This document shows positions 1 through 57,155 of a stretch of 64,000 nucleotides of DNA, piece by piece. Below the pieces are notes generated by a model. That model ran no database searches, was not told the origin of the DNA, and saw only the letters and a program-made list of their open reading frames with translations. Both the position numbers and the translations under genes were made by a program. The stretch covers positions 2,272 to 66,271 of the forward strand of contig JBPBQS010000159.1 in assembly GCA_050920955.1 (NCBI GenBank), written 5' to 3'. How positions within the stretch are numbered: position 1 is the stretch's first letter; each line of letters begins with the position of its first letter. This stretch comes from Janthinobacterium lividum (GTDB taxonomy: Bacteria; Pseudomonadota; Alphaproteobacteria; Acetobacterales; Acetobacteraceae).

Positions 1-73
1 GCCTTACTTAGGGGATGCGTTCCAAGGGCGCAGCCTTTGGCGGAGTTTGAGGCGGAGCCTCAACCTTGCTTCC
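1..73. repeat. mosaic hairpin repeat copy 1 (one arm, cut by window edge)
   Basis: ...CTTAGGGGATGCGTTCCAAGGGCGCAGCCTTTGGCGGAGTTTGAGGCGGAGCCTCAACCTTGCTTCC; nearly identical to one arm of copies 5 and 19. Confidence 0.9.
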
Positions 74-1178
74 CTTCCCCTGCCCCGCCCCTCCGGCTAG
101 CGTCCGCGCCGTCACCGACCGGAACACGCCCGTGCTCGCTTCGCGCCACCTGCTTGCCATCGAGGGCATGCACCCGCCGCAGATCGGCGAGCTTCTCGAC
201 CTGGCCGAGAGCTACGTCCTGCTGAACCGCTCCGGCAAGACGCAGCGCGACACGCTGCGCGGCCGCACGGTGATCAACCTGTTCTTCGAGGACAGCACGC
301 GCACGCGGACCTCCTTCGAGCTGGCGGGCAAGCGGCTGGGCGCGGACGTGATCAACATGTCCGTGTCGAACTCCAGCGTGAACAAGGGCGAGACGCTGCT
401 CGACACGGCGGCGACGCTGAACGCGATGCACTGCGACCTGCTGGTGGTGCGCCACGCGCAGTCGGGCGCGCCGTCGCTGCTGGCGCAGAAGGTCGGCGCG
501 GCGGTGGTCAACGCCGGGGACGGCACGCACGAGCACCCGACGCAGGCGCTGCTGGACGCGCTGACGATCCGGCGCCGGCGGGGGCGGCTCGCGGGGCTGA
601 CGGTGGCGATCTGCGGCGACGTGGCGCACAGCCGGGTGGCGCGCTCCAACATCCACCTGCTCGGCACGATGGGCAGCCGGGTGCGCGTGGTCGGGCCGCC
701 GACGCTGATGCCGGCCGAGATCGGGCGGCTCGGCGTGGACGTGTTCCACGACATGGCCGAGGGGCTGCGCGGCGTGGACGTGGTGATGATGCTCAGGCTG
801 CAGCGCGAGCGCATGGGCGAGGGCGGGGGCGCGGCCCCGGTGCCGAGCGCGCGCGAGTACTTCCGCTTCTTCGGGCTGGACGCGGAGAAGCTGTCGCTCG
901 CTGCGCCGGACGCGCTGGTGATGCACCCCGGGCCGATGAACCGCGGCGTGGAGATCGACAGCGCGGTGGCCGACGACCTGGCGCACAGCGTGATCCGCGA
1001 GCAGGTGGAGATGGGCGTCGCGGTGCGCATGGCGGTGCTGGACCGGCTGGCGCGGCCGCAGGCGTCGGGCGGGGCGGGCGCGCAGGGCGTGGGGCGGGGC
1101 AACGCCAGCCTCGGCGTCGCGGGGCAGGAAGAGGACGACGAGGCCTGGAACGACAAGCCGTGGGGGGGCGAGTCGTGA
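66..1178 (+). CDS. pyrB: aspartate carbamoyltransferase catalytic subunit
   Basis: ATCase motifs are present: [28 protein letters not shown]. The TTG at 66 lies inside repeat copy 1; an in-frame GTG at 132 is an alternative start. Confidence 0.9.
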
Positions 1179-2545
1179 GCGACGTCCTGTTCGAGAACGT
1201 GCGGCTGATCGACCCGGCCAGCGGCACGGACCGGGTGGGCGCGCTGCTGGTGCGCGACGGGCGGATCGCGGACCTCGGCGACAACCTGGGGCGGCCGGAC
1301 GGGGCGGTGGTGGTGGACGGCACGGACTGCGTGCTGTGCCCGGGGCTGGTGGACATGCGCGCGGCGCTGGGCGAGCCGGGGCGCGAGTACCGCGAGACCA
1401 TCGCGTCGGCGGCGCAGGCGGCGGCGGCGGGCGGGATCACCACGCTGGCCGCGCTGCCCGACACGAAGCCCGCGATCGACGACCCCGCGCTGGTCAGGCT
1501 GCTGCGCGCGCGGGGCGAGGAGACGGGCTCGCTCACGATCCTGCCGTACGGCGCGCTGACGGCGGGCTGCGCGGGCGAGCAGCTCGCGGAGATGGGCCTG
1601 CTGCGCGAGGCGGGCGCGGTCGCGTTCACCGACGGGATGCGCGCGATCGGCAACGCCAGGCTGATGCGGATGGCGCTGGCGTATGCGCGCGGCTTCGGGG
1701 TGCGCGTCGTGGTGCACCCGGAGGAGCCGGCGCTGGCGGCGGGCGGGGCTGCGACGGAGGGGGAGCTTGCGACGCGGCTGGGGCTGCCGGGCATCCCGGC
1801 GGTCGCCGAGGCGATGCTGGTGGCGCGCGACATCCGCCTGAGCCGGCTCACCGGCGGCGCGCTGCACGTCGCGCACGTGTCGACGGCGGAGTCGGTGATG
1901 CTGATCCGCCGCGCCAAGGGCGAGGGCGTGGACGTGACCTGCGACACCGCGCCGCCGTACTTCGACCTCAACGAGACGGCGATCGGCGACTTCCGCTCCT
2001 ACGCCAAGCTGTCGCCGCCGCTGCGGCCGGAGAGCGACCGGCTGGGCGTGGCGGCGGGGCTGCTCGACGGCACGATCGACGCCATCGCGTCCGACCACCA
2101 GCCGCGCGACGCGGACGACAAGCGGCTGCCGTTCGCGCAGGCCTCGCCCGGCGGCTCGGGGCTCGCGACGCTGCTGGGGGTGAGTCTCGCGCAGGTGCAC
2201 GGCGGCTCGCTCGGGCTGGCGGCGATGGTGGCGCTGCTCACCGCGCGGCCGGCGAAGGTGCTCGGGGTGGCGGCGGGGACGCTGGCGCGCGGGGCGGCGG
2301 CGGACCTGTGCCTGTTCCACCCGGAGCGGGCGTGGAAGGTCGTCGCCGGGCAGCTCCCGGGCAAGGCGCAGAACACGCCGTTCGACGGCCGCGCGCTGGA
2401 GGGCCGCGTGTTCGGGACCTGGAAGGCGGGGCGCCTGGTGTTCGCGCACCCCGGCGGGCCGGCGGAGCGGGCGCGGGCGTTCGCGGCGCCCGGCATGGCC
2501 GACGGGGCGCAGGGGCCGGACGGGGCGGCGGAGGTCGGGCTGTGA
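1175..2545 (+). CDS. dihydroorotase-like protein (probable non-catalytic PyrC'-type)
   Basis: Amidohydrolase/DHOase fold (PGLVD..EPG, ASDHQP) with a GTGA overlap on the pyrB stop; the track start is 1160. The canonical DxHVH motif reads DMRAA. Confidence 0.8.
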
Positions 2546-3165
2546 CGGGCCTGCCGCTGCCGGGGCCGGGCAGCTACGCGGGCGCGGGGCTTCTGGTGGC
2601 GGTTCTCGCGTATCTCGCGGGGTCGGTGGCGTTCGGGCTGCTGCTGACGCGGCTGGCGGGGCTGGGCGACCTGCGCGCCGTCGGCTCGGGCAACATCGGC
2701 GCGACCAACGTGCTGCGCACCGGGCGGCGAGGGCTGGCGGCGGCGACGCTGCTGCTGGACGCGGCGAAGGGGCTGCTCGCGGTCGTGCTCGCGGGGTGGG
2801 CGCTCGGGGGTTGGGCTGCGGCGGTGGCGGCGGTGTGCGTCGTCGCGGGGCACTGCTTCCCGGCGTGGCTGCGCTTCCGCGGCGGCAAGGGCGTCGCCAC
2901 CGGGCTGGGCGCGATGCTCGGGCTGGACTGGCGCGTGGGGCTCGCAGCCTGCGCGGCCTGGCTGCTGGCCGCGTGGCTGAGCCGGGTCTCGTCGGTGGGC
3001 GCGCTCGCGGCCATGGCGGCGGGGGTCGCGGCGGCCGGGCTGCTGATGGCGGGGGCGGGGTGCGCGGCGGCGGTACTGGTCGCGGCCCTGGTGGTGGCGC
3101 GGCACCACGGCAACATCCGGCGGCTCGCCGCGGGGACGGAGCCGAGGATCGGGGCGCGGGCTTGA
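2542..3165 (+). CDS. plsY: glycerol-3-phosphate acyltransferase PlsY
   Basis: In-frame GTG overlaps the previous stop. GSGNIGATNVLRTG motif and a multi-TM profile. Confidence 0.85.
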   Translation: MTGLPLPGPGSYAGAGLLVAVLAYLAGSVAFGLLLTRLAGLGDLRAVGSGNIGATNVLRTGRRGLAAATLLLDAAKGLLAVVLAGWALGGWAAAVAAVCVVAGHCFPAWLRFRGGKGVATGLGAMLGLDWRVGLAACAAWLLAAWLSRVSSVGALAAMAAGVAAAGLLMAGAGCAAAVLVAALVVARHHGNIRRLAAGTEPRIGARA

Positions 3166-55410: not shown

Positions 55411-56929
55411 AGTCCTGCCGGTAGTTCGGCGCCTCGCGCGTGATCGCCACGTCGTGCACGTGGCTCTCGCGCAGCCCCGCCCCGGTGATCCGCCGGAACT
55501 GCGTGCGCGTCTGCAGCTCGCCCACGGTGGCGCTCCCCGTGTACCCCATCCCCGCCCGCAGCCCGCCGACGAGCTGGTGCACCACGGCGCTGACCGGCCC
55601 CTTGTAGCCGACGCGCCCCTCGATGCCCTCGGGCACGAGCTTCAGCGTGTCCTTGATCTCCTGCTGGAAGTAGCGGTCCGCCGACCCCCGCGCCATCGCC
55701 CCGATCGACCCCATGCCCCGGTACGACTTGTACGACCGCCCCTGGTAGAGGAACACCTCGCCCGGCGCCTCGTCCGTCCCCGCGAGCAGGCTGCCCACCA
55801 TCACCGAGTCCGCCCCAGCCCCGATCGCCTTGACCAGGTCGCCCGAGGTCCGCACGCCCCCGTCCGCGATCGACGGCACGCCGTGCGCGCGGCACGCGGC
55901 CGCCGTCTCCATCACCGCCGAGAACTGCGGCACGCCGACGCCGGCCACCACGCGCGTCGTGCAGATGCTGCCCGGCCCGATGCCGATCTTGACCGCGTCC
56001 GCGCCCGCCTGGATCAGCGCCTCCGCCCCCTCCGGCGTCGCCACGTTGCCGGCCACGACCTGCACCGCGTTCGACAGCCGCTTGATCCGCTCCACCGCCG
56101 CGAGCACGCCCTGCGAATGCCCGTGCGCCGTGTCCACCACGACCACGTCCACGCCCGCCGCGACCAGCGCCTGCGCCCGCGCGTGCCCGTCCTCGCCGAC
56201 GCCGGTGGCCGCCGCGACGCGCAGCCGCCCCAGCTCGTCCTTGTTGGCGAGCGGGTGCGCCGTCGCCTTCTCCATGTCCTTGACCGTGATCAGCCCGACG
56301 CAGCGATACGACTCGTCGACCACCAGCAGCTTCTCGATGCGGTGCCGGTGCAGCAGCCGCCGCGCCTCGTCGTGCTCCGAGCCGTCGGCGACCGTGATCA
56401 GCCCCTCGCGCGTCATCAGCTCGTACACCCGCGTCGACGGGTCGGTGGCGAAGCGCACGTCGCGGTTGGTGAGGATGCCCACGAGCCGCCCGCTGTCGCG
56501 CTCGACCACGGGGAACCCGCTGATGCGGTGCAGCGCCATCAGCGCGCGCGCGTCGGCCAGCGTCTGGTCGGGGTGGATGGTGAGCGGGTTGACCACCATG
56601 CCGCTCTCGAACTTCTTCACCCGGCGGACCTGGTCGGCCTGCTCCTCGGGCGTGAGGTTCTTGTGGATCACCCCGATGCCGCCCTGCTGCGCCATGGCGA
56701 TGGCCATCGCACTCTCGGTGACGGTGTCCATCGCCGAGGACACCAGCGGGATGTTGAGGCTGATCGTGCGCGTGAAGCGCGTGCGCGTGTCGGTGTTGTT
56801 CGGCAGCACCTGCGAGTACGACGGCACGACCAGCACGTCGTCGAACGCGAGCGCCTCGCGGATGCGCTGGTCCAGGCGCGGGCCCGGCTCGGGCTGCGCT
56901 GGCTGGGTGGCGGTGCTCTCGGGGGCCAT
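55409..56929 (-). CDS. guaB: IMP dehydrogenase
   Basis: Catalytic loop [11 protein letters not shown], a CBS pair and GGVRTSGD. Confidence 0.97.
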
Positions 56930-57020
56930 GGCGAACGCCTTTCGACGCCGGGCGACGCGGATACGGCCCGGCCTTGGCGCGTCCTTCTAGCGGGTCGGGG
57001 CGGGGGGGATCAAGGCTTGC

Positions 57021-57155
57021 GGCAAAGCGAGCAAGCATGGGCTCTGCCCAAACCCGCCAGGGCGAGCCGCCCTGGACTGGCCTTACTTAAGTTGTGCGTT
57101 CCAAGGGCGCAGCCTTTGGCGGAGTCCAGAGGCAGCGCCTCTGGCCTTGCTTGCC
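57021..57155. repeat. mosaic hairpin repeat copy 19 (full)
   Basis: GCGAGCAAGCATGGGCTCTGCCCAAACCCGCCAGGGCGAGCCGCCCTGGACTGGCCTTACTTAAG + GTTGTGCGTTCCAAGGGCGCAGCCTTTGGCGGAGTCCAGAGGCAGCGCCTCTGGCCTTGCTTGCC. Confidence 0.93.

Follow-up and report, generated by a model that had tools for sequence, protein, structure and literature searches.

A clade-specific family of modular, two-armed hairpin repeats at the 3' ends of genes in uncultured, GC-rich Acetobacteraceae

Approximately one third of the gene-to-gene gaps in a GC-rich Acetobacteraceae chromosome are occupied by copies of a single family of short hairpin repeats, which is described here from a 64,000-nt stretch of contig JBPBQS010000159.1 (the whole of which is referred to as the window) and from related DNA. 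The reading favored here, which we hold to be reasonably probable, is that these repeats represent a clade-specific intergenic family of the repetitive extragenic palindrome/bacterial interspersed mosaic element (REP/BIME) type in uncultured GC-rich Acetobacteraceae, with hairpin-dependent copying and a probable role at the 3' ends of genes. An earlier reading made from the letters alone (the sequence-only reading) had described the repeats in this stretch as one dense family of two-armed, modular hairpins, and it is supported on each point as far as it could be tested.

In the window, which has a G+C content of ~75% (range 72-80%), the hexamer CTTAAG found at the center of the elements occurs 10 times where 0.8 occurrences are expected and where the maximum in 100 shuffles was 4, and the hairpin-2 module AAAGGGTCCGAGGACCCTTT is present at 8 sites (allowing up to 3 mismatches) against an expectation of 0. 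When the 20 arms flanking the 10 CTTAAG centers were made into an nhmmer profile, it recovered ~34 arms at exactly 19 loci, the number that had been given previously, and a repeat finder independently returned families of 120-136 nt along with inverted pairs that are up to 96% complementary. The family amounts to ~2.3 kb, or 3.7% of the window, in agreement with the earlier estimate of ~2.2 kb and 3-4%, and its loci occur at a density of one per 3.4 kb. These results confirm that the repeat family is real and abundant.

The basic unit of the family is an arm of ~60-65 nt. Its outermost part is a purine-rich, nearly T-free 12-mer with the consensus AAGGAAGCAAGG, followed by a first hairpin (hairpin 1), in which a GGC-NCN-GCC core is invariant and the outer pairs vary, a linker of the ACYCCGC type (in the forms ACCCGC or ACTCCGCC), a second hairpin (hairpin 2) and, at the inner end, an AT-rich tail such as GATCCCTTGACTT. 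A full element consists of two arms arranged head-to-head around an ACTT/AAGT (CTTAAG) center, with a median length of 133 nt, and these centers are the AT-richest 28-mers in the whole window. The outer 7 bp of paired arms are 89% complementary (GGAAGCAAGG ... CCTTGCTTCC) because two arms of one consensus sit inverted.

Two classes of arms can be distinguished. Class A arms carry a hairpin 1 of the form ..GGGC...GCCC.. and hairpin-2 modules such as CAAAGGGTCCGAGGACCCTTTG or CCAGGGGCGAGCCGCCCCTGG, and class B arms carry a hairpin 1 of the form ..GAGGC...GCCTC.. with the modules CCAAGGGAAGCCCCTTGG, CCAAAGGCTCGCCTTTGG and their relatives. The window and 84 further loci together yielded 422 arms, 90 of them unpaired, and 166 paired elements, of which 113 are A/B, 31 A/A and 3 B/B in a sample that was collected by the A-arm core and is thus enriched for A arms. 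At least 10 perfect variants of hairpin 1 and at least 12 of hairpin 2 are present. The interchangeable hairpin-2 modules named in the sequence-only reading were all found in the window, as were the composites that lack CTTAAG. The shuffling of arms proposed there is likewise real, but it is not free, since the two classes have their own sets of hairpin-2 modules. Solo arms also exist as claimed, but copy 4 (16542) is not purely solo and retains the remnant of a second arm, and the list was incomplete in that copy 12 (43398) is a further solo arm. The recurring peptides that had been attributed to the repeats are a byproduct of the open reading frame (ORF) track, since the elements fall outside coding frames. 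A small ORF within the A arm, with a Shine-Dalgarno (SD)-like tract and an ATG ... TAA frame, was also considered and rejected; only a single variant of hairpin 1 contains the ATG, and the differences at this position are stem covariation.

The sequence-only reading had expected a dispersed family rather than a local oddity, and this expectation was borne out in a sample of relatives comprising 547 kb of loci from metagenome-assembled genomes (MAGs) and 894 kb of metagenome loci, which together with the window amount to ~1.5 Mb. The A-arm core was found in at least 84 stretches from six MAG species (five uncultured Acetobacteraceae and one labelled Janthinobacterium lividum), and a second pattern was found in at least 120 metagenome stretches, with 598 arms in the 894 kb of metagenome loci. 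In total, more than 1,000 arms are present in the 1.5 Mb of related DNA. Identical hairpin modules are shared across the genomes of relatives, and their frequencies are lineage-specific. The GuaB proteins nearest to that of the window are 98%, 95% and 92% identical, and those of the named genera Limobrevibacterium and Rhodovastum 83-84%. Four outgroups with 65-69% G+C (Rhodovastum, Limobrevibacterium, 'Rhodospirillales 70-18' and a JGI contig) contributed 86 kb of sequence surrounding guaB, in which the profile gave one weak match. The family is thus clade-specific and dispersed, with at least six MAG species carrying it.

The single outgroup match lies between the HAD and rsmB genes of Rhodovastum atsumiense (locus L091, 12218-12300) and consists of three consecutive GC-rich hairpins with an ACCC-type linker and without the outer purine 12-mer; it hints at an older and wider Acetobacteraceae superfamily. 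It should also be noted that MAG JBPBQX (loci L003, L007, L012 and others), deposited as Janthinobacterium lividum, has a G+C content of 72-77% and is 91-96% identical to the window, and hence either its label is wrong or the bin is contaminated.

Covariation identifies the structures that are maintained in these elements. In a MAFFT alignment of 96 A/B elements, in which three local hairpins could be scored in register, 98% of the local hairpin cells are paired compared with 90.4% in shuffles, and 11 of 20 hairpin pairs change on both sides (204 cells), a result matched by 0 of 500 shuffles. The signal collapses in controls with slid partners, and RNAalifold concurs with the covariation of the local hairpins. 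Pairing between the arms, at 81.9% versus 81.0% in shuffles, shows no covariation, and the cross-arm alternative for the hairpin-1 halves is 56% paired. The most stable fold of a single copy (26091-26224) is a long stem that encloses two inner hairpins (-70.1 kcal/mol as RNA, z = -4.0), but this long fold is not what evolution preserves. Because inter-arm pairing lacks covariation, the arm and not the doublet is the evolving unit, and orthologous sites differ by the gain, loss or replacement of single arms. G-U mismatches are about equally frequent on the sense strand and on the other strand (24 vs. 22), and this absence of a sense-strand bias fits a constraint on the DNA or on the source copy rather than selection on RNA in place.

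Genes were mapped by codon-position G+C, with housekeeping genes confirmed by Pfam (pyrB, plsY, dprA, topA, RNase R, guaB, rsmB, clpP and others). Each element in the window adjoins the 3' end of at least one gene, with elements in 14 tandem gaps, 4 convergent gaps and none of the 8 divergent gaps, and nearly all tandem and convergent gaps longer than 100 nt are accounted for by an element. When contexts are pooled over the related DNA, 142 are tandem, 62 convergent and only 6 of 210 divergent, so that divergent gaps are avoided relative to their share in the window (8 of 52 gaps; p = 4.5e-9). In 110 of 164 cases, the upstream stop codon is located 10-29 nt from the hairpin-1 loop, which places it at or within the purine 12-mer. 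Whichever strand is read, CCTTGCTTCC follows the last hairpin, an arrangement detected by a terminator scan, which at several elements flags hairpin 1 with a CCTTGCTTYC tail that has ~4 T in 10 and begins with CC. No sigma-70 promoter was found in the AT-rich center, and enrichment of CcrM (GANTC) sites is weak, with 7 of 73 sites within the 3.7% of sequence that the elements occupy.

The 19 loci, all recovered with the nhmmer profile, are as follows (window coordinates, with the strand where one is assigned).

1-78: B-class right arm with center variant CTTAGG, the left arm lying beyond the window start (arm match 13-78, E=2e-15)
3161-3293: full element B - CTTAAG - A', occupying the space between two genes on the + strand (the first stops at 3165, the second starts at 3305)
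11616-11748: full element A - CTTAAG - B'
16542-16655: left arm (16542-16598) with a remnant right-hand hairpin 1, in a convergent gap; this site is also filled in two other species, both with an additional hairpin module
17375-17509: full element A - CTTAAG - B'; the ortholog in MAG CAXSFE has other hairpin modules
19395-19527: full element A - CTTAAG - B', with paired (compensatory) changes in hairpin 1' relative to the orthologous copy
20808-20978: composite with a left arm of class B and an A-like right arm, separated by an unrelated GC-rich hairpin in place of CTTAAG
26091-26224: full element A - CTTAAG - B', the template of the single-copy folds, conserved in MAG JBPBQX (locus L035)
30934-30989, + strand: solo B-class arm immediately 3' of a stop codon
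32677-32813: full element between convergent genes, its A-class arm carrying the hairpin-2 module CCAGGGGCGAGCCGCCCCTGG
37578-37765: B arm and A' arm with center variant CTAAG, the hairpin-1 loop of A' holding a nested extra hairpin
43398-43455, - strand: solo arm (hairpin 2 and hairpin 1)
46015-46153: full element B-like - CTTAAG - A' between two ABC-transporter genes
46947-47011, - strand: solo arm between convergent genes
49249-49384: full element B - CTTAAG - A'
50984-51130: composite of two A-like arms without CTTAAG
52482-52613: full element A - CTTAAG - B'
55281-55410: full element with center TTTTAAGG, between guaB and a HAD hydrolase gene
57023-57159: full element A - CTTAAG - B', upstream of guaB

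A comparison of orthologous gaps, which had been proposed along with the sequence-only reading, revealed differences in presence and absence within the clade. For instance, two genes that overlap by GTGA at locus L046 are separated by an element at L076, and the site of element 46015-46153, filled at L116, has a 9-nt spacer at L086 and a short unrelated spacer at L025. Both of these clean empty sites are tight stop/start junctions of neighboring genes. Similarly, the guaB and HAD genes overlap in the outgroups (ATGA, TGATG) and are split in the window by element 55281-55410. The overlaps are at L094 11494-11497 and L091 11531-11535, compared with window 55409-55266; the end of guaB in the outgroups holds a purine-rich SD sequence, and the HAD gene of the window has no more than a weak SD-like GAAAG. 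The majority of the remaining window sites are filled in every relative sampled, with a flank identity of 80-96%, indicating that most of the insertions are old.

At occupied sites, the contents of the elements change. Modules have been swapped at 17375 (MAG CAXSFE) and 52482 (L086), the left arm at 49249 is of class A in L025 and of class B in the window, and the solo arm at 46947 corresponds to two arms in L086, with a similar difference between L083 and L066. At L025 ~4100-4350 (MAG CAXSFU), the ortholog of window 46932-47011, an unrelated AT-rich palindromic insert with sequences such as CTTCTTTTTCTGAAGAAAAAGAAG and TTCTTTCTTTCAAGAAAGAA is present at the site of the window's solo arm.

Copying to new sites is also illustrated by the additional hairpin nested in a hairpin-1 loop of copy 11. 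This extra hairpin of ~57 nt (GTAGCTGCCAAAGGTTCCGACGACCCNCTTGGGTCGTTGGAATGGCAGCGGAGGGA) is headed by GTAG, is located at window ~37686-37742 in an A-class hairpin-1 loop, and recurs at the identical loop point of A-class arms at 9 unrelated loci in several genomes (window 37686-37742; L048 7400-7460; L102, L111, L120, L128, L152, L159 and L177). The insert may be a second repeat that is specific to the loop, or it may mark a derived subtype of arm that has spread. The occurrence of this subtype at unrelated loci implies that arms were copied and did not arise by convergence. Flanking direct repeats of at least 5 bp are not in excess at 153 elements relative to mismatched flank pairs (shared 6-mers, 31 vs. 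24.7; shared 7-mers, 10 vs. 9.2), a test that covers duplications of at least 5 bp and leaves those of 2-4 bp compatible with the data. Overall, these comparisons show that copies of arms have entered new gene junctions, that sites are mostly inherited vertically, and that arms and modules turn over with the hairpins preserved.

The combination of invariant loop and linker bases with covarying stems suggests a protein that reads a folded single strand. Folded single strands are recognized by HUH/Y1 enzymes, such as the REP-associated tyrosine transposases (RAYTs) and the TnpA proteins of IS200/IS605, and the lack of long target duplications also points to an enzyme of this type. For copying, hairpins formed by single-stranded DNA would be required together with the invariant bases of loop and linker. 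These features would be recognized by a hairpin-specific enzyme encoded elsewhere, most likely an HUH/Y1 transposase of the RAYT/IS200 type. The module swaps would be accounted for by gene conversion among copies. The elements would be co-transcribed with the upstream gene, so that its transcript would carry a stack of stable stem-loops within ~10 nt of the stop codon, ending with a hairpin and CCUUGCUUCC. Such stacks probably serve as 3'-end protectors or as leaky terminators, in either orientation because the element is symmetric. In E. coli, REPs are involved in the protection of mRNA 3' ends and in partial termination, and they affect translation termination. By analogy, the elements probably alter how strongly the downstream gene is expressed relative to the upstream one, and they probably break the coupling of genes that used to be coupled.

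Several points weigh against this reading. No RAYT/IS200-like gene was found in the ~1.5 Mb examined, either by tblastn with E. coli RayT, which is a distant probe, or by a scan for the HUH...Y motif, in a sample that represents ~0.3 genome equivalents spread over many genomes and thus provides weak evidence. The sequence-only reading had noted the absence of such a gene from the window, and neither method returned one there; the regular expression for HUH...Y gave 0 matches in the window and in the MAG and metagenome loci, and tblastn matches to RayT with E = 0.07-0.18 were rejected as non-coding junk frames. The relatives listed by a database search with E. coli RayT were all enterobacterial, which provided no lead to RAYTs of the Acetobacteraceae. 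Most described REPs are marked by GTAG or CGTC tetranucleotide tags (Di Nocera et al. 2013, PMC3733652), and the arm consensus contains neither tag nor its complement in either class, with only the rare 57-nt nested insert starting with GTAG. The flank repeats at the two clean insertions (GTGAG at L046/L076 and a GC-rich 9-mer, GG[A/G]C[C/G]G-like, at the 46015 site) may represent short target duplications, and Y1 enzymes generate none. With respect to the 3'-end role, the tail that follows the last hairpin has ~4 U in 10 and is poor for an intrinsic terminator, and the orientation of the elements relative to transcription (40 vs. 27) shows no significant bias, so that no strand-specific RNA role is indicated.

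An alternative is that the family consists of miniature inverted-repeat transposable elements (MITEs) derived from a DDE insertion sequence (IS), non-autonomous copies in which the 12-nt ends act as terminal inverted repeats and whole 133-nt elements are moved with a short target duplication. The inverted, 89% complementary outer ends (GGAAGCAAGG ... CCTTGCTTCC), a median length that is typical of MITEs and the short repeats flanking both clean insertions (GTGAG and GG[A/G]C[C/G]G-like) are all in keeping with such an origin. However, the complementarity of the ends is expected from inverted arms and lacks covariation, the two flank repeats are unequal in length and contain stop/start signals that selection demands anyway, and direct flank repeats of at least 5 bp do not exceed mismatched controls. 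Moreover, arms often occur solo (90 of 422), gain, loss and replacement affect one arm at a time, and the copies combine at least 10 x 12 hairpin variants in mosaic fashion instead of being decayed versions of a single master. No parent IS with matching ends was noticed in the 1.5 Mb of sampled loci and contigs. We consider a MITE origin unlikely, and we view with similar reserve the idea that the family is not driven by a RAYT at all and moves as arm-wise 'hairpin cassettes', which would target and split coupled stop/start junctions, perhaps by way of the SD-like purine tract that their ends mimic, and would then swap modules. If true, this would represent a new kind of mobile gene-junction insulator.

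Two further explanations appear quite improbable. One of these would treat the elements as REPINs in the sense of Bertels and Rainey, in which the inverted doublet replicates as one long hairpin and is maintained by a single-copy, domesticated RAYT. Pairs do predominate (166 pairs vs. 90 unpaired arms), the single copy folds best as one long stem (-70.1 kcal/mol, z = -4.0), and most sites are vertically inherited within the clade, as described for REPIN populations (PMC5581495). Yet the arms belong to different classes in 113 of the 166 pairs and turn over singly, pairing between them shows no covariation, with cross-arm positions only 56% complementary where the local hairpins covary strongly, and RAYT was not found in the ~1.5 Mb sampled. 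The other, to which we would give just as little weight, supposes that the elements are no longer mobile, being host-maintained signals (bidirectional terminators or operon insulators) that spread in ancient times and have been homogenized by recombination between copies. Such signals would explain why relatives with a flank identity of 80-96% have nearly every window site filled, why the elements lie strictly at gene 3' ends and fill nearly every tandem or convergent window gap longer than 100 nt, and why the terminal hairpin with its pyrimidine tail is terminator-like on either strand. They are less easily reconciled with the differences in presence and absence within the clade, the derived arm subtype at 9 unrelated loci and the lineage-specific expansions of modules; in addition, there is no G-U bias on the sense strand, contrary to selection on RNA in place, and many copies are situated within operons, where a strong terminator would be harmful. 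The reading as a REP/BIME-type family with hairpin-dependent copying remains the one that we favor.

The sequence-only reading had not recognized the repeat, and comparison with databases and literature gives the same outcome. At gathering thresholds, Rfam reported only 2 tRNAs in the whole window, and a search of one element at E values up to 10 returned only noise. Four module sequences had no match in a full-text search of a literature library, and a search for work on repeats in the Acetobacteraceae produced nothing relevant beyond PMC3733652, in which CGTC-tagged REPs are often alphaproteobacterial and the Acetobacteraceae are among the families without CGTC repeats.

The closest analogues are the BIMEs of E. 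coli and other enterics, built from Y and Z REPs, in which two unlike, inverted palindromic units surround a conserved linker. The resemblance noted in the sequence-only reading extends to unlike inverted arms with a linker, solo arms, clusters, gene 3' positions and the avoidance of divergent gaps. Like BIMEs, the family includes solo units and larger clusters, reaches hundreds of copies or more, is found downstream of genes or inside operons, and keeps its stems by paired changes. Many E. coli REPs, as Liang, Rudd and Deutscher reportedly found in 2015, are located up to ~15 nt from a stop codon and affect translation of the upstream gene. In contrast to BIMEs, the present family has no sequence similarity to them, carries two hairpins and a 12-nt purine end per arm instead of one REP stem, lacks a GTAG head, has no RAYT found in 1.5 Mb, and resides in an alphaproteobacterium with 75% G+C. 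Its center is the AT-richest spot, but by eye it does not fit the integration host factor (IHF) consensus of BIME-1.

Other known families share parts of this design. RIME1, RIME2 and the Sm repeats of Sinorhizobium are alphaproteobacterial, intergenic mosaics of ~110-130 bp with two large palindromes. The family resembles RIME1/RIME2 in design, as compared by description, but its host family differs and its copies would number about a thousand, as opposed to tens for RIME. With the Correia elements of Neisseria, ERIC/IRU, RUP and other MITEs it shares a size of 100-150 bp and inverted ends, those elements being often co-transcribed and altering the expression of neighbors; they have fairly uniform copies and defined target duplications (e.g., TA), whereas the present family is modular, with independent arms and no duplication signal at 5 bp or more. 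GTAG/CGTC-tagged REPs are similarly short, GC-rich, abundant and extragenic palindromes, with tags that the arm consensus lacks. REPIN-RAYT systems of Pseudomonas and Enterobacteriaceae (PMC5581495) also have inverted doublets, a high extragenic copy number and mostly vertically inherited sites, but here the doublet is not self-complementary, there are two arm classes, and RAYT was not found in 1.5 Mb. The REP-associated RAYT groups 2 and 3 are illustrated with Escherichia and Pseudomonas in the same work (PMC5581495).

The repeats are extragenic GC-rich palindromes, they form alternating inverted units with linkers, and they are found at gene 3' ends, as in REPs and BIMEs; membership of the RAYT-mobilized REP class cannot be claimed, with the tag absent and no RAYT found in the 1.5 Mb sampled. 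As far as checked, this is an undescribed family of the REP/BIME type, and hence of a kind of element that is already known. It differs from REPs and BIMEs in its two-hairpin arms, the two classes, the absence of a tag and the tight adjacency to stop codons.

A few other features of the window were noted. The GC skew changes sign at ~46000-48000, the region in which genes mostly on the + strand give way to genes mostly on the - strand. This switch could mark a replication terminus region or simply follow from gene strand; an AT-rich dif-like site was not detected there. The ORF at 27305-29521 (- strand, 738 aa) has 80-100 nt direct repeats within it (families D5 and D16), indicating a repeat protein, and adjoins an unusually AT-rich divergent gap at 29580-29650. 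A 99-nt tRNA-Gly reported by ARAGORN at 8678-8776 is inside a coding region, was not called by Rfam and is probably a false positive.

At the density of the window, a genome of several Mb would contain a thousand or more loci, and the family would shape the lineage's operon architecture. The repeats break MAG assemblies and seed spurious ORFs and peptides, and they could also serve as a marker of the uncultured clade. Gene pairs that are coupled in the outgroups and split here, such as guaB and the HAD gene, offer a natural experiment on the effects of repeats on expression. Finding or excluding the enzyme would show whether the association between REPs and RAYTs is general.

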